A DNA stretch of 54,745 nt, filler included, from Sluysia triapertura (GCA_046118255.1; 4 parts of 4 records of this genome joined end to end with filler, not necessarily neighbours in it); one strand, 5' to 3'; counted from the first letter of the whole stretch, positions 13,318 to 36,090 are shown. Notes: generated from the sequence alone by a model not told the origin. Numbers and translations: made by a program.

Positions 13318-14450
13318 TGTAGTGGTCAACACTCACAACTTAAAATTATCAAAACATTATATTCAACACTCATAATTCAAACTTCACTAAAACATAATAT
13401 CTAAAGCATTTCATACTATCGAACTACATCAACTCAATCATCATAAACAACACTCTACATTTATAATATCTCATCAACTCATGTATACCAACAATTCGAC
13501 TAACACCCTCAACCATCTACTTTATAACATACTCAGATAATTAATCCAGAATAATCCACAACATTCACTCAAAAACTAATTGATCGAACAAACCACAACC
13601 ACAATATATAATACAGAAATCATAAATACACTAACACCACTTAACAACTTTAACAAGTACCTTAGACTTAGAAAACATTTACATTAAAATCTCCAACCAA
13701 TTACACCAAACTAAATCAACTTCATTTACACATGTTCATTATCAATACTCATTTTTAACGACACTACAAATACGCTAGGATTTATTTTCTAATCGTCTTT
13801 TAAAATTGAACAAACTACAACCTTTCAATAAGCATCTCAAACTATCATATTCAAGGCATAAATCGTGTTATTAATTACAAACCATTAATAAATTTTAGTA
13901 ATTTATTCTAACATTCTTCGTTTCAAGTACAACTCAAATCATTTCTTTTATCTTTAGAAATAAATATAATAAAGCTTTAGAGAATTCATTATCTCAATAT
14001 GAAGCAACAACGATAACCGAGACGTAGCATACCTCGTTACCGTTGATCCTTCACAGTATGTCATCTGTTTTTATTTCTCTTTATTTTTTATTTATTTATA
14101 TGTAAGAACTAGAATAATTTTAAAGAAAAGATCGTTTAGGTTATCAAAAGAAAGATTTATGCGATCTTTATTTAAGAACAATAATAATAATGACAATGTT
14201 GTTATTAATGTTATTATTATTATTGCTATCCTTCACTAAAATTACTTTTAATAAATTTAATTCATTAATATCAAAATAGTTGCTGCCTCATCAGTATTGA
14301 CACTACTGTTTATCAATGTCATTAGAGTGCCAAAACTGATGATGGTTAGCAATCTCAAGTTAATTCCATATCATAGAATTTTATACATCACCCAATCAGA
14401 GTACATATTACTGAAAATACTCACAAATACTCTGATTGGGCAAGTCAAAA
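13318..14450 (+). mobile_element. Head copy A of unclassified TGTRGTGG element (terminus + C/A-rich tract + hairpin array)
   Basis: Starts TGTAGTGGTCAAC. 13980-14450 aligns to 35608-36087 (AGAATTCATTATCT..GAAGCAACAACGATAACCGA; TGTAAGAA..TAAAGAAAAGATCG; GATGATGGTTAGCAATC; CATCACCCAATCAGAG). Confidence 0.8.
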
Positions 14451-14647
14451 ATAGATTGTTAGTGTTAATAGTAGCCAAAAAATACATAAACCCAAATTAA
14501 AACTATATTGGATAACCAATAGTCTGCCACACAACATTGATTTATTTTTGTGGTATTTACTGATGAGTAAAAAGAGAATGTTAAAAAAATTAATACTGTG
14601 TTACTGTTAAAAAGACGATTATATCTAAAATATCGAATTTAAAAAAG

Positions 14648-16850
14648 ATGAACAATGCGAGATTTTCTCATACCTTCTCTATGTTTAATAAAGTTGCATC
14701 AAAGAATTTATTTTTATATCATCGTAACGATAACACTGTTAATATTATCAATAATGGATACTTTAATTCAACTGTTTGTGGTTTAAATACGACAGTTAAT
14801 TTCGAATCGACATTACCAAGTTCAACAATAAATGTTACTTTAGTAAATATTGGAAAAACCCAACTTATATTACTTAGACCTTTAATTATGTTAAAAGACG
14901 AGCGACAACCTACTGACTTAGTTTTCATAGTAATCACATTCAAGCAGAACCATCTATAAAGACAAATTTTTCAACGCAAGAACCGACATCAGTTCACAAT
15001 ATATTTCATTCCATAACTACTATGTCGCAAAATTCTAGTTGTCTTCAGGATAAAGATGTGTACTTTGATTATTCGTATTTATTGAGTATATTATATGAAT
15101 CGACCCAATCTCTTAATTTAACAAATTATCATGCAAATAATACCCGTTTCCTATTTATCGTTTTTCCAACGACTTCGCAACTCGAAAAGGTCAAACAAGA
15201 AATAAGTTGTATTAACAAAGAACAATCATCATATGATGATCTTGTCTTCCTACAATCAATCGTAGATAAGTATATGAATTTATAATTAAAGATTCTGTCA
15301 GGTTTAGAAGTAATTTATATGTCACATCCTTATGTTACATATTCTGTTAAAGTTGATAATGATGTCTCTCCCAATGTTCCACGACTTATCGATATATTTA
15401 ATAACAATTTACTCAAAGCACAAAACTCTCCACGTATAATTAGTAATTTACGGTTTTAATGCTGGATTGATTAGACGTTTTAAATCAAAATGGTAAGTTG
15501 CCTACGTTAATTATAGTGTATCAGGATTACATGGCTACGCTTTTTACTCTGATGAAACTATCAATGTAAACAATAATTACCACTTAAAGAAAAACAACCA
15601 AATTGAATTCGATCCTCATGAGTCAATCATCCGTAGTTATCACATAATCAAGCTGATTTACCTTCATTGTGTATACATGAACATATACCAGAACCAAATT
15701 GTCATGAAGATCAAGTACGCACGTAAAGTTGTCGATTTCCTACGATTCCTACAGTACAATCATAGAGCATTTCAAGTTGCAACTTGTCAATCAACGGTTA
15801 TCTACAGGTCAAAAGCAAAAATCTAGTAATTCAATCTCGTTGTGTGATAGTCGATTCCTGAACTATTCTACGATGCTACTTTTAGTAATAACAGATATCA
15901 GAACATTCAAGGAAATACTCAATTTCCCTCCGAACATGTTTACGTGGATCTCTGACAAAGAAGTAATTCTTACTTATTTGAACGTTTTAAAACTAGCACG
16001 CCATTCTATATGTGAAACTTCAACAATAAAATTCAATCCAAGGATGCAATATCAATTATTAGACAAAGCACCTCAATCAAAGTTATTTATTAGCGATTTT
16101 ACGAATGGTTTGACTTTGGTTTAATCTTTAAGAACGTTGCAGATACCGCTGTAATCAATGTGGGTTTTAATTTAATATGTTCACTAACTTTTGAATCAGT
16201 TTATAAAGTTACCGATCGGATCTGTGAGGCGAAACAGGATGTGGGATATAACAATGAACTTAGAAGAATAGGAGATAACAAAAAAGGCAAAACTTTCAAT
16301 CTCAGAACTTTTAATCTGAATCTTCAAAATTTGATCGTTAAATATAAGCTGATTAATGTGTATTTATTAAATTTTCTAATTTATTTATTAAAAAGATTGT
16401 TCTCATTGTCACACAAAGTCATGACAAAAATACGTATCTTGAAATTAACAAAATTAAACAAGTATGAAATTCCCGATACTGTAGAATTTCAACCTATCCA
16501 ACTCTTGGGTAGGCACTCTAAGATTATTACGTTTGTAACCCCTCTACAAGATGTTCCATCAAAATTGAAAGCATTTTGATAATATCTGTTAAAGAATTAG
16601 ATAATTTATTCACAAAGACTAATAATAAAGTTCCTCATGTTATTTTAACTTTGCTATTAAAACTTCCTCATTATGAACGAGATAAGACAAACATTTTATC
16701 GTCAATTAAGCTTAAATTTGTAATAACGTTATTAGTTTATAAGGTTAAAAATTATTATGGCTATCTTGAAATTATAATACAACCAAATTGGTTTAGGGAT
16801 CACTTCCTCCTAAAGTTGTAATGACAACTTAACATTTCCAGCTATTGAAT
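14648..16850 (+). pseudogene. Cargo A: long intronless ORF broken by stops and frameshifts, unknown product
   Basis: Chain of consecutive plus-strand ORFs (14648-14959, 15022-15285, 15729-16124, 16160-16579, 16576-16821) joined by coding-like sequence, directly downstream of head A. Confidence 0.55.
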
Positions 16851-17148
16851 ATGAAATGAGTTCTCTTAATTGTTTGCTTATGAAATGAATTATGTATATG
16901 ATACGAAACAAATAATTTATTCTTTTTGTATAACTGTCACATAAAATTATTAACATATTCTCTTCAGCCTTAAGGGCTTTTAAATTAACTAAAAGTTTTT
17001 AAATTGATACATGACATACGACAAATATAAACATTTATAAACACACAGCAATAATTCTCTTATAAAAAGTTATATGAATAACTAAATGTCCCAAAGAAAC
17101 GAGTTAAATTAAAACGTTTCAAATATTCGATTAAATAAAAAATCTAAC

Positions 17149-17409
17149 TCAACGAATATTTAGATTAACGTAAAAGCTGAAATTAGAATTGAAATAAAGC
17201 ATCGTACATCTAATGAATATAGTATTTGTTGTTGCGCGAAATGTTGATAGATTTGGCTTAACATTTAATAAATTAACATCATAATCTGACTTAGTTGCAA
17301 AACGTTTATAACAATAATTTAATGTGTTAAGATTATGGCTGTGCTGAAATTGTGACATTAGTTGAATATGAACTTTAACATTCGTTCCAGGTAATAACAA
17401 GGAAGACAT
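17149..17409 (-). CDS. Short ORF downstream of arm F, convergent with cargo A; unknown product
   Basis: 86-aa ATG-initiated ORF directly after the T-rich end of arm F. Confidence 0.3.
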   Translation of the reverse strand: MSSLLLPGTNVKVHIQLMSQFQHSHNLNTLNYCYKRFATKSDYDVNLLNVKPNLSTFRATTNTIFIRCTMLYFNSNFSFYVNLNIR

Positions 17410-17459
17410 TTTGTGGATGCATTTTTAATTGTTCAAAATTATTTAATCCATATTATATT

Positions 17460-34274: not shown

Positions 34275-34635
34275 ACAAAACTCTTTGATAGTCCAAGCCA
34301 TTTTTCAAAATTTGAAATTTTTCGCGAGCCACAATTAAATACCGCTTGCACAATATCAACTGTCCGTTGCAATGAAAGTTTACAAATTCAAAATCGGTCA
34401 GGATTCGGTCGATTATTGACTTATGTTCGCGCATTTTTCGATAAGTCATATCATTCTTAACTTGGACGGAAATGAAATTTATTACAACGTTGCACTTAGT
34501 CTTTCATACTTGTCATTAATTTAAAACATTTTGAAACACATGCGGAACGATAATAATTTTTTAAAATATAATAACTCGGGTACATTTATCGACAGCCACA
34601 AATAATCCTTCAAAGCCGCAGTTTGGCCTACCCTG
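34275..34635 (-). mobile_element. Non-autonomous hAT (Charlie/Buster-type) MITE
   Basis: Minus strand begins CAGGGTAGGCCAAACTGCGGCT. The far end has the typical GTGGCTCGCGAAAAATTT...AAATGGCT subterminal motif, with a degenerate TIR. Confidence 0.6.
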
Positions 34636-35129
34636 ATATATACTAATTTGAAAACTAATTAAGTGTGTAATTTAAAATATTGTTTACATAAACACATCAT
34701 AAATTATGATATAGTGTTGATCTAATTTTCGAGAAAGATTTGTAGGTTTTACCGAGATACTTTTCGATGAAATGATTTGATCTTTAGCCAAAAATAACGT
34801 TGTTTTGCAAATTTAAACTTAATTTAAAATTTTTGTTGTTGATAATAATAAAGATACATTTTTTAGGGATATATTGTACATTCAACAACACAATGAATAC
34901 CATCATAGTAAAGATTTGGTAATAATTATTTGAATCAATAATTAATAAACTGTGGCCAAATGTAAAAACACAGTGTTTTTGTTATTCCTAATGACAAGTA
35001 TTTATTATAATCCTTTTCGAGTAGATGTTTGTGATACCATTTAGATTGAACGCGTACATTTTTTATTAGAAAATTTAATAATTAATTTTGCTGACAATGA
35101 TAATTATCATTCTGTTCAAGAACCAATAA

Positions 35130-35197
<68 letters not shown>

Positions 35198-35500
35198 TTT
35201 TAGTTTATACAACAAATCAATGTATGAGCTCTTGAATTANNNNNNNNNNNNNNNNNNNNNNNNNNNNNNNNNNNNNNNNNNNNNNNNNNNNNNNNNNNNN
35301 NNNNNNNNNNNNNNNNNNNNNNNNNNNNNNNNNNNNNNNNNNNNNNNNNNNNNNNNNNNNNNNNNNNNNNNNNNNNNNNNNNNNNNNNNTAACCTAAAAA
35401 NNNNNNNNNNNNNNNNNNNNNNNNNNNNNNNNNNNNNNNNNNNNTTAATTAATTAANNNNNNNNNNNNNNNNNNNNNNNNNNNNNNNNNNNNNNNNNNNN

Positions 35501-36090
35501 TCAAATTATAAAGTTTCAATAAGTTCTAATAAATTATTTTAACACTCTTCATTTCATTTACAACTTTAACCATTACATGTTTCAAAATAAATCTTAAATA
35601 ACCTTAAAGAATTCATTATCTGACTGTGAAGCAACAACGATAACCGATACTTACTATACCTTATTACTGTTGCTCCTTCACAGTTTATCATTCGCTTTGT
35701 TCATCTCTTATTTCATTTATCATTTGATATGTAAGAAGGTTTAGTAATATAAAGAAAAGATCGTGTAAACATTGGCAAAGATTTTATGTATTTTTCTTTA
35801 TAATAACAATAATAATAACAACGTTATTGCCGTTATTATTATTGATATTATCATTTTATATACAGTGTTAACATTATTATTTTCTGCACTTGTAAATTAT
35901 TTGTAAATAATTAAATTTTAATGAACAAAACTTTGTCGTCATCATCATCACTTAATCCATTCTCACCTGCACATCACTACTGATGATGATGGTTAGCAAT
36001 CACAGAAACAAAATTCATTACCTCATCACCCAATCAGAGCTCAGTTTGTTCTCATAATGGTAAAAACACTCCGATTTGGCAGTCAAAAAA
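35501..36090 (+). mobile_element. Head copy B (5' part lost in assembly gap)
   Basis: Colinear with 13900-14450; hairpins at 35623-35684, 35938-35993 and ~36030-36079. Confidence 0.8.

Follow-up and report, generated by a model that had tools for sequence, protein, structure and literature searches.

Our data support the conclusion that the stem of hairpin 2, a fold of about 60 nt found in repeat heads that precede several different broken host-like genes, is maintained as a shape. The fold was located in a 54,745-nt stretch of joined DNA records from Sluysia triapertura (GCA_046118255.1), hereafter the window. As a tentative reading, to which we give somewhat less than an even chance, hairpin 2 may act through its shape as a signal in a leader RNA, the RNA of a mobile element that is non-autonomous and carries host-like genes it has captured.

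The heads are modules of approximately 1.1–1.3 kb, in which a TGT-type end is followed by a G-poor arm and then by three or four hairpins of 55–70 nt (Table 1). Four of the five heads precede different decayed, apparently intronless genes. The position of hairpin 2 is fixed at 890–970 nt inside the TGT-type end, and a stem of 19 pairs with a 23-nt loop is common to copies E, C, and A. All four arm pairs (E, C, A, and B) were found where the initial annotation had placed them, and its pairing of 18 out of 18 with three G-U in C was reproduced. In head D, the 5' arm of hairpin 2 matches E in 20 of 21 letters, while the 3' arm is absent. AAT arrays were abundant throughout the window.

Table 1. 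Heads, hairpins, terminal arms, and cargo genes, numbered from the first letter of the window
Feature	Position	Strand	Description
Head A	13318-14450	+	TGTAG end, G-poor outer arm (5% G), hairpins 0-3
Head B	35501-36090	+	Outer part lost in assembly gap; 75% identical to A
Head C	19990-20603	-	Without outer ~470 nt; adjoins start of D
Head D	20618-21530	+	End motif; hairpin 1 and one half of hairpin 2; outer arm at 72% identity to E
Head E	25960-27089	-	End motif after ATT run, G-poor outer arm, hairpins 1-3
Hairpin 0, A	14000-14056	+	A/B type only; 5' arm equals B over 21 nt; antisense fold better
Hairpin 0, B	35626-35684	+	Best 61-nt fold of the window, antisense strand
Hairpin 1, A	14170-14232	+	Inverted AAT/ATT run
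Hairpin 1, B	35796-35856	+	
Hairpin 1, C	20225-20290	-	
Hairpin 1, D	21405-21460	+	
Hairpin 1, E	26236-26305	-	
Hairpin 2, A	14280-14352	+	Core 14286-14303 with 14327-14345, 16/18 paired, plus outer extension; both strands fold equally
Hairpin 2, B	35938-35993	+	Outer 12-13 pairs only, CAT/ATG triplet run; inner 5' arm missing
Hairpin 2, C	20124-20184	-	18/18 paired, 3 G-U; 23-nt loop beyond pair 19
Hairpin 2, D	21510-21530	+	5' arm alone; likeness to E stops here
Hairpin 2, E	26116-26176	-	19-pair stem, 17 paired; 23-nt loop
Hairpin 3, A	14388-14443	+	CCAAT/ATTGG within arms
Hairpin 3, B	36026-36082	+	
Hairpin 3, C			5' arm only
Hairpin 3, E	26019-26074	-	
Arm T1	17470-17851	-	Short, G-poor, TGTAG end facing head A at 4.5 kb; related to T2
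Arm T2	46169-46600	+	Related to T1
Cargo A	14594-16900	+	Decayed frame, stops and frameshifts; galactosyltransferase (PF01762) piece, E 2.2e-9; B3GALT5, E 7e-4
Cargo B	36100-38263	+	Decayed frame; no family found
Cargo C	18000-19930	-	Decayed frame; primase-small-subunit-like piece, E 1.7e-4, under Pfam cut-off; Cys/His motif by eye only
Cargo E	24240-25730	-	497-codon frame, two stops; hydrophobic start, KIDINS220-type SAM domain, weak CCCH finger

Covariation was analyzed in an alignment of the three full copies, E, C, and A. In this alignment, 51 of the 56 cells paired (91.1%), a level reached by 3 of 500 shuffles, and two-sided change occurred at 4 of the 19 pairs, with 20 of 500 shuffles as high; these shuffle counts are based on three related sequences and are not probabilities. 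When the partner columns were slid by 1–3, pairing fell to 21–61%. Changes in the two arms coincided on the same pairs more often than under random placement (P = 0.0085 for E-C, 0.022 for E-A, and 0.048 for C-A; the three values are non-independent). Four pairs were doubly changed in each comparison, and two (E-C), two (E-A), and three (C-A) of them were paired in both copies. Taken by itself, the observed pairing only slightly exceeded what a perfect stem would retain under neutral decay, for which the probability of at least 17 of 19 pairs is 0.27–0.36. A double compensatory substitution between E and C, proposed in the initial annotation, was confirmed at stem pairs 4 and 5, where both sides had changed. 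The arms were not better conserved in sequence, with 11 of 38 letters differing between E and C, as compared with 71% identity across the heads. In the loop, only 7–9 of 23 letters were identical between copies, against 71–75% over the heads, and none of 12 tests revealed direct or inverted likeness (all P ≥ 0.09), in agreement with the earlier view that the loops are unrelated. All three copies have a 23-nt loop despite this random-level identity, and in a public run (X1) the E loop varied at 9 of 23 places. The proposal of conservation by compensatory change is thus supported for E, C, and A, in which the arms change together and the loop is free at a fixed length.

A rival reading, somewhat less likely than the leader-RNA one, is that the hairpins are DNA-level inverted repeats within a long terminal arm of the Pack-TIR, Foldback/MULE- or Ginger-like type. 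Their symmetry would then arise through arm-to-arm template switching or through folding of single-stranded DNA in replication or gap repair, and the wobble polarity of C and E would be partly due to chance. The adjacent double change at pairs 4 and 5 could represent a single copying event; however, no loop inversion, a possible trace of arm-to-arm switching, was seen.

On the cargo-sense strand, hairpin 2 folded more stably than expected by chance, with z-scores of -4.8 (C), -4.9 (E), -4.4 (A), and -2.4 (B). We scanned the window on a 6-nt grid as 17,924 segments of 61 nt (mean -5.2, sd 3.2 kcal/mol), and the best six loci were all head hairpins, including hairpin 2 of C and A; hairpin 2 of E and B was absent from the best 25. 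We consider it very improbable that the stems are functionless by-products of triplet slippage (CAT/ATG, AAT/ATT) in an AT-rich genome. Although the B stem and all copies of hairpin 1 are triplet runs and AAT arrays fill the window, no triplet run makes up the inner ten pairs in E, C, or A; position, loop length, and co-located changes are common to the copies, and the six best folds all lie within heads. When E, C, and A were used to build a model, B scored 25 bits, equal to the opposite strands of the training copies. The Rfam check suggested in the initial annotation yielded no match for the hairpin: Rfam 15, including hammerheads and IRES, gave zero matches in the window at the gathering score, and a search of 13000-37000 gave a single chance match (E 1.2), outside the heads.

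It had further been claimed that the cargo-sense strand is the only one on which G-U pairs work. This held for C (fold energy -24.8 on the cargo-sense strand vs. -13.2 antisense) and E (-21.2 vs. -15.7), but not for A, whose strands were equal (-26.6 vs. -27.0), or B, in which the antisense strand folded better (-13.1 vs. -16.2); the claimed cargo-sense preference is present in only two of the four copies. One A-C mismatch each in hairpin 2 of E and A is a G-U pair on the opposite strand. The G-U tally was 10 sense vs. 2 antisense for hairpin 2 (P = 0.039), 2 vs. 12 for hairpins 0 and 3 of A and B (P = 0.013), and 23 vs. 27 over all head hairpins, the D half hairpin excluded (P = 0.67). The E wobble at pair 17 is private, as 1780 of 1802 summed depth (32 contigs, one public run) carries the Watson-Crick letter, which is also found in C, A, and D. 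A G-U at pair 12 is common to E and C and also occurs in a third type of 3' arm in run X1, represented by the loose end of five contigs with an agreement of 0.72. Read by eye, this third arm type pairs with the E 5' arm at 19 of 19 places, with two G-U and no A-C. Across lineages, pair 10 is A-U (third arm type), G-U (C), and G-C (A), and the leader-RNA reading would take this series as a two-step route via a wobble on the cargo-sense strand.

Such wobbles would tend to be erased by arm-to-arm DNA copying, and both the G-U common to three lineages and the series at pair 10 argue against DNA-level inverted repeats, whereas the absence of a net strand bias over all hairpins (23:27) and the DNA fold energies of C and E, which differ by ≤1.4 kcal/mol between strands, are as that reading expects. 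The single-stranded cargo-sense nucleic acid implied in the initial annotation is supported for the C/E subfamily alone, by pairs 12 and 10, and not family-wide, as A is symmetrical and the neighboring A/B hairpins lean antisense.

The neighboring hairpins raise two further alternatives. One, which we consider unlikely, is that hairpins 0, 2, and 3 form a small-RNA precursor cluster on the element, cut by Drosha and Dicer to RNAs of about 22 nt. Some retroviruses make such small RNAs from their terminal repeats. Consistent with this are the three 55–70-nt hairpins in series, a constant 60–61-nt size with free loops, and the TT directly after the stem 3' end of hairpin 2 in E, C, A, and B; hairpin 2 of E, C, and A, though not of B, has pre-miRNA dimensions (55–75 nt, stem of at least 18 pairs). 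The longest exact A/B match, of 21 nt, is an arm of hairpin 0; the two that follow in length fall wholly or partly in arms of hairpins 2 and 3 (three of the six runs of at least 12 nt, among those listed). However, one 21-nt run is unsurprising at 75% identity (about 0.3 expected, by arithmetic), the hairpin 2 arms of E and C differ at 11 of 38 letters, the would-be seed is different in A and the third arm type, and the lower stems comprise about 1–7 pairs, as compared with about 11 in the usual Drosha substrate. Hairpins 0 and 2 also favor opposite strands, and the lack of an Rfam match weighs on the same side.

The other, for which we see a slim chance, is that the arms are paired sites in double-stranded DNA to which a promoter complex or a terminal complex binds (CCAAT in hairpin 3, the CAT triplet in hairpin 2), where a dimeric protein needs symmetry and no folding. 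CCAAT/ATTGG words occur in both arms of A hairpin 3 and nearby; in and behind hairpin 3 they number four in 300 nt in A, vs. 1.85 per kb, with one each in B, C, and D and two in E. Conservation of one arm whose partner has gone or is drifting is seen in the D 5' arm and in hairpin 3, whose 5' arms are alike at 13 of 14 letters between E and C and whose 3' arms are alike at 5 of 12. On the other hand, the CCAAT word is gone from both arms of E hairpin 3 through paired change, and the hairpin 2 arms diverge at the background rate yet stay complementary, which a fixed binding word would forbid.

Run X1, possibly the assembly's own source, is the one public run from which family variation was drawn. 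It contained 2306 contigs over 24300-27075 (head and cargo E), 1882 of them less than 95% alike, with depth maxima over hairpins 2 and 3 and a depth of 53–138 between them, in a contig table that is blind over both arms of hairpin 2. The heads are members of a repeat family in which head E and cargo E have many diverged relatives. The copies in the window are dead and have acquired private changes. A ZNF207 exon is 91% identical to Schmidtea, which makes a planarian host likely. No Pfam family was found in cargo C at 18461-19105, and no relatives of cargo E or B were found among viral contigs.

The ends of the units were examined in the light of known mobile elements. TGTAG or TGTGG ends were found at five of six places (X, A, T1, T2, and E), D having TGGGG, and TGTNR is the terminal pattern of Gypsy and Ginger integrase substrates (PMC2836005). 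The facing ends of A and T1 share 9 of their first 10 letters, with no likeness beyond, while those of D and E, 6.5 kb apart with two gaps between, share 24 of 30 and are 72% alike over 452 nt. Such facing ends, and the fact that D terminates within hairpin 2, as could be the case for a right-hand arm, accord with DNA-level inverted repeats, and long-TIR elements capture animal genes (PMC8277862). Against them stand the two D-E gaps, the unlikeness of A and T1 beyond their tips, and the lack of a target-site duplication in any of eight end pairings (exact, at least 4 letters, offsets -3 to +3; these are old copies, paired with some uncertainty). The window yielded no further direct copy of the A or D outer arm; the unbroken sequence after the A outer arm is 9.7 kb, and D, E, and B run into gaps. 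As for a tRNA primer-binding site, CA-N0-4-TGG was absent from head A, and the hits in B, C, and E share no common place. Pfam searches of the cargo frames recognized no gag, reverse transcriptase, integrase, or transposase coding, and the frames contained no Polinton/Maverick PolB, integrase, ATPase, protease, or capsid genes; a non-autonomous derivative of that group is possible. The only hit of a motif scan was an HHCC-like spacing at 21911 (+), at chance level and without Pfam support. The Helitron HLE1 signature (5' TC, 3' short hairpin and CTRR) was not found at the mapped ends of the units, which are TGT/ACA in either direction.

LTR elements capture intronless, chimeric gene pieces in animals (PMC5131818). 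The units resemble such non-autonomous LTR chimeras (maize Bs1 and the animal cases in PMC5131818) in that a repeated end module, here with a TGTNR-type end, is followed by host-like cargo that is chimeric and seems to lack introns, and in multiplying without their own enzymes. They differ in that neither a second direct terminal repeat nor a primer-binding site was recognized, the cargo is far from any database protein outside single domains, and a leader hairpin series is not in the available part of the description (PMC5131818). The giant Gypsy-like elements Burro and GYPSM1 (PMC6431247) come from the same animal group, Dugesiidae, and share accessory ORFs with host-like domains and decayed copies with stops and frameshifts; however, gag, protease, RT, integrase, and env were not recognized in the window, the units seem to be 4–7 kb as against 30 kb in Burro, and, set against its description, no hit to MATH, BCL2, BIR, ankyrin, midasin, or dUTPase was obtained here. 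Like Pack-TIR and Pack-MULE elements, e.g., Drosophila Ssk-FB4 (PMC8277862), the units may have long inward-facing arms around captured genes without a transposase, but the facing arms are only 72% alike (D/E) or alike at the tip only (A/T1), no target duplication was found, and the cargo of known Pack-TIR elements is close to its parent gene. Ginger transposons (PMC2836005) share the TGTNR ends, but their TIRs measure 40–270 bp. Helitron-like HLE1/HLE2 (PMC11417382) also show gene capture, no target duplication, and stem-loops, but our heads start with TGT and not TC, no Rep-helicase was recognized, and the hairpins are about 60 nt long and lie about 1 kb inside rather than being short and terminal. 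Penelope-like Terminons (PMC6431247) likewise repeat a structured RNA motif, the hammerhead ribozyme, beside varied ORFs, whereas no hammerhead matched here (Rfam, E ≤ 5, 13000-37000); the CTGATGA word occurs in A and B, and C and E lack it at the corresponding position.

Under the leader-RNA reading, hairpin 2 would fold in the element's leader RNA, and the proteins of a helper element, acting in trans, would recognize the folded shape while copying or packaging that RNA. Transcription would begin upstream of hairpin 2, the folded strand would be cargo-sense RNA, as supported in C/E-type copies only, and the head module would be a transposon end, judging from the TGTNR pattern of Gypsy and Ginger integrase substrates. 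Because hairpin 3 and the sequence behind it contain CCAAT/ATTGG words, the promoter could instead sit downstream, leaving hairpin 2 outside the transcript. More speculatively, and with little confidence, the shared front module may be a plug-in expression and mobilization cassette for many captured genes, whose row of roughly 60-nt hairpins would either be processed to small RNAs or serve as a shape code at the RNA level, with strands differing by subfamily. If so, this would be a cargo-swapping planarian element with its own small-RNA cluster, which might act on the piRNA/RNAi defense in planarian stem cells.

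The four hairpins quoted in the initial annotation were confirmed in the window as hairpin 2, one of the serial hairpins (0–3) of the heads, which are copies of a repeated front module standing before decayed cargo frames. On the cargo-sense strand, the hairpin folded at −26.6 (A), −24.8 (C), −21.2 (E), and −13.1 (B) kcal/mol, with z of −4.4, −4.8, −4.9, and −2.4, and on the opposite strand at −27.0, −13.2, −15.7, and −16.2 kcal/mol, respectively. In a scan of 17,924 windows, the six loci with the most stable folds were all head hairpins. The hairpins of E, C, and A have 19 pairs and a 23-nt loop, and their alignment, which needs one stem gap, had 51 of 56 cells paired, as against 21–61% in slid controls; RNAalifold recovered the same helix. 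The loops are unrelated, as had been proposed, with identity at random level in either orientation, and a loop inversion found no support. Hairpin 2 of B retains the outer stem only, as a triplet repeat; slippage as the source of the stem is, in our estimate, highly improbable. Head D, absent from the initial annotation, retains the 5′ arm and nothing beyond.

Features of the window, with coordinates along the joined stretch
Feature	Position	Strand	Description
Head A	13318..14450	+	hairpin 2 at 14280..14352
Head B	35501..36090	+	hairpin 2 at 35938..35993
Head C	19990..20603	-	hairpin 2 at 20124..20184
Head D	20618..21530	+	
Head E	25960..27089	-	hairpin 2 at 26116..26176
Junction of heads C and D	20600-20618		C stops exactly at the start of opposite-strand D; in head E, the outer part of greatest abundance ends at about this point
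Hairpin 0 of A and B	14000-14056, 35626-35684		overlooked by the initial annotation; A and B share one arm exactly over 21 nt
Cargo A (behind head A)			broken galactosyltransferase-like frame (PF01762, E 2.2e-9; B3GALT5)
Cargo B (behind head B)			decayed frame without family match
Cargo C (behind head C)			primase-small-subunit-like piece (E 1.7e-4, below cut-off)
Cargo E (behind head E)			497-codon frame with two stops and hydrophobic start; KIDINS220-type SAM domain (E 1.9e-14), weak CCCH finger
Family T (T1; T2)	17470-17851; 46169-46600	-; +	G-poor arms of ~400 nt with TGTAG end, then ATT run and pyrimidine tract in place of hairpins 0–3
Family F	1366-2028, 11108-12298, 47968-48720, 48872-49084, 688-745		repeat copies 62–75% alike
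ZNF207-like host gene exons	about 5860-6756	-	closest named relative Schmidtea mediterranea
Other DNA-transposon remnants	50269-50442 (+), 54072-54745, 34620, 31306, 39653		
More GC-rich decayed frame	29000-30700	-	~500 codons; no convincing Pfam family
Decayed frame converging on cargo B	38266-39321	-	AAT/ATT run in front
Decayed frame converging on head D	21550-22900	-	AAT/ATT run in front
Joins between records	10932-11031, 24138-24237, 35401-35500		each a 12-letter all-frame-stop spacer flanked by 44 N on either side; joins across uncertain

The 19 pairs of E, C, and A comprised 9 invariant pairs, 3 with changes on one side, 4 with changes on both sides, and 3 that differ only by unpaired cells. 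The changes on the two arms coincided on the same pairs in three non-independent comparisons (P 0.0085, 0.022, and 0.048), each with four doubly changed pairs, which were paired in both copies in only two, two, and three cases. Neutral decay of a perfect stem would often leave 17 of 19 paired (P 0.27–0.36) and less often 18 (0.10–0.15). The arms were no better conserved than the remaining head, as 11 of 38 letters differ between E and C against 71% identity overall.

Relatives of head and cargo E were found in the public run X1, which consists of contigs of a kind not on record, is possibly the source of the assembly itself, and contains 0.48 of the sampled words from 24300-27080. At 80% likeness, 2306 contigs aligned on 24300-27075 (112 at ≥99%, 312 at 95–99, 860 at 90–95, and 1022 at <90). 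Their depth, a sum over contigs that gives no copy number, was 3,450–12,580 in the outer arm, 50–1,250 in the inner head, and 290–2,280 over most of cargo E; the long pieces listed reached a depth of 7–28. By these alignments, head and cargo E both have many diverged relatives, and the outer ~470 nt more of them; head C lacks almost exactly those outer ~470 nt. Around hairpin 2 (26012-26192), 166 contigs aligned, and depth fell to 53–138 in the spacer that separates hairpin 2 from hairpin 3. The wobble of E at pair 17 is private to E, with 1780 of 1802 summed depth against it; 9 of 23 loop positions are variable; and the majority letter at position 26060 (1120 of 1295) gains a G-C pair in hairpin 3. 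Differences were reported only at least 31 letters from the end of a piece, which hides about 26112-26133 and 26161-26192 and thus both arms of hairpin 2, so that we do not claim invariance of the arms. A third type of 3′ arm was seen as a loose end in 5 contigs (agreement 0.72). Compared by eye with the 5′ arm of E, which these contigs are presumed to carry, it turns both mismatches of E into Watson-Crick pairs, keeps G.U at pair 12, and gains G.U at pair 13. Pair 10 is A-U in the third type, G.U in C, and G-C in A; pair 11 is C-G versus U-A (C, A). Of the arguments for folding as a single strand, the wobble common to three lineages together with this A-U/G.U/G-C series is the strongest.

The initial annotation had also held that G-U pairs are specific to the cargo-sense strand. 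In a strand-neutral comparison of the arms (sense G.U versus A.C), hairpin 2 of A, B, C, and E gave 10 versus 2 (P 0.039), whereas hairpin 0, present in A and B only, together with hairpin 3 of A and B gave 2 versus 12 (P 0.013), and hairpin 1 gave 10 versus 12. The total over the head hairpins, excluding the half hairpin of D, was 23 versus 27, and hairpin 0 of B, the best fold of the window, prefers the antisense strand (−28.2 versus −19.3). Because the other tallies lean oppositely or balance, the asymmetry belongs to C/E-type hairpin 2 and fails for the head as a whole. By eye, the 5′ arm of hairpin 0 resembles that of hairpin 2, and the hairpins may therefore be old duplicates. Taken together, the hairpin is real and shape-conserved in a planarian cargo-carrying repeat family and the strand argument was overstated; the initial observation, like its interpretation, thus stands in part.

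Our tentative reading is that hairpin 2 lies in the leader RNA of a non-autonomous, cargo-carrying element and serves there as a signal recognized by shape. The leader of such a putative transposon, itself without an enzyme, would fold hairpin 2 on the cargo-sense strand, and a helper would recognize its shape. The analysis itself establishes the stem with its paired changes, its position, and the repetitive character of the family, whereas transposon identity, RNA state, strand, and helper are inferred. Two observations speak most strongly against this: the neighboring hairpins of A and B lean the opposite way, and CCAAT words occur both inside hairpin 3 and behind it, so that a promoter could sit downstream. 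Paired promoter sites are improbable and rank marginally below a small-RNA cluster, which we also consider unlikely. DNA-level symmetry in an inverted-repeat element ranks close behind the leader RNA, as a doubtful but possible explanation. Head A and the arm T1 face each other 4.5 kb apart, as do D and E, 6.5 kb apart on the joined stretch with two gaps between, and this orientation would suit inverted ends; A and T1, however, are alike at the tip only.

Heads A, D, and E open with a short end motif, behind which one strand contains 4–5% G; ends of this kind also occur at 10444 (+), 46169 (+), and 17851 (-). Five of the six ends carry TGTAG or TGTGG; according to an excerpt of PMC2836005, TGTNR is the end pattern of Gypsy LTRs and Ginger transposons. 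Hairpin 2 starts 968 (A), 892 (D), and 904 nt (E) inside the end. The subfamilies A/B (75% alike) and C/D/E (71–74%) are linked by likeness of the inner head. No primer-binding site was found at one common place in the heads, no second direct copy of the arm in the window, and no target duplication in eight end pairings. The stretch at 22800-22860 (-), suspected of being a sixth head, had no fold (z 0.25) and aligned with z ≤ 1.6; it was discarded, as were six further stretches (z ≤ 1.7). An initial guess of hAT ends was dropped because the heads begin with TGT; separate CAG-type ends lie elsewhere. The Rfam search proposed earlier returned no match at gathering score in the window and one chance match at E 1.2 (13000-37000); a hammerhead reading of a CTGATGA word was rejected, with no hammerhead match in Rfam at E ≤ 5 over 13000-37000. 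ARAGORN found no tRNAs, and the exact patterns of E hairpin 2 and the A/B hairpin-0 arm had no match in metagenome contigs.

The long uninterrupted cargo frames suggest that introns are absent. No sense frame was recognized behind D, where a composition test weakly favored the opposite strand, and no mobility enzyme in the cargoes. Cargo E had no relatives among 1095 candidates of similar length and no match in PDB; its 21 matches in a representative library were every one to the SAM domain. Neither cargo E nor B had a usable match in the Atlas or a relative in viral contigs, and 11 proteins searched against PHROGs gave just one weak unnamed match.

As far as excerpts of the sources describe them, the family works like LTR-borne gene chimeras (PMC5131818) or Pack-TIRs (PMC8277862), shares its host group with Burro elements, which have host-like domains (PMC6431247), and differs in its ends from Helitrons (PMC11417382). 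Excerpts of PMC11410931, PMC8532177, and PMC3198968 name Burro, GLT2, Polintons, and PIVE/PEVE and contain no description of this head. Titles and abstract openings in the literature searched likewise do not describe it, and a name may exist in Repbase, supplements, the 2018 Schmidtea genome, or the original Polinton or PEVE paper. We place the head family in no known class, since the membership tests failed or were incomplete for each.

The window is animal DNA with 24% GC and nine N runs. The upstream exon of the ZNF207-like gene is 91% identical to Schmidtea mediterranea ZNF207 over 75% of the 59-residue query (best of 24 hits), which makes a triclad planarian the likely host; the proline-rich exon of the gene had no match. 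Family F has the same one-strand G-poor skew as the heads, a relation to which was not detected, and one copy ends at a gap with an AAT run. In T2, a 6-nt match to the start of the arm recurs in inverted orientation 635 nt further on. The other transposon remnants include a CENP-B-type HTH piece (weak Pfam match), a frame resembling a hAT/Charlie transposase end by eye without a Pfam match, and several CAG-type end motifs; the frame at 29000-30700 is probably another. In the two converging frames, neither family nor head was recognized.

Gene-capturing transposons are known, but those described in animals are mostly single captures of young age. In this family, at least four unrelated cargoes follow one front module, and since cargo E, and thus at least one cargo, has many diverged relatives, cargo genes would have spread along with the element. 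LTR elements and Polintons are the chief piRNA targets in planarians, according to an excerpt of PMC8532177, and a structured or small-RNA-yielding leader could therefore bear on that conflict. As a local structure the hairpin is solid; the repeat copies that carry it are dead, and its function is putative. Its shape-kept stem offers a handle on how helpers recognize enzyme-less elements, as well as a probe with which to classify unassigned planarian repeats.
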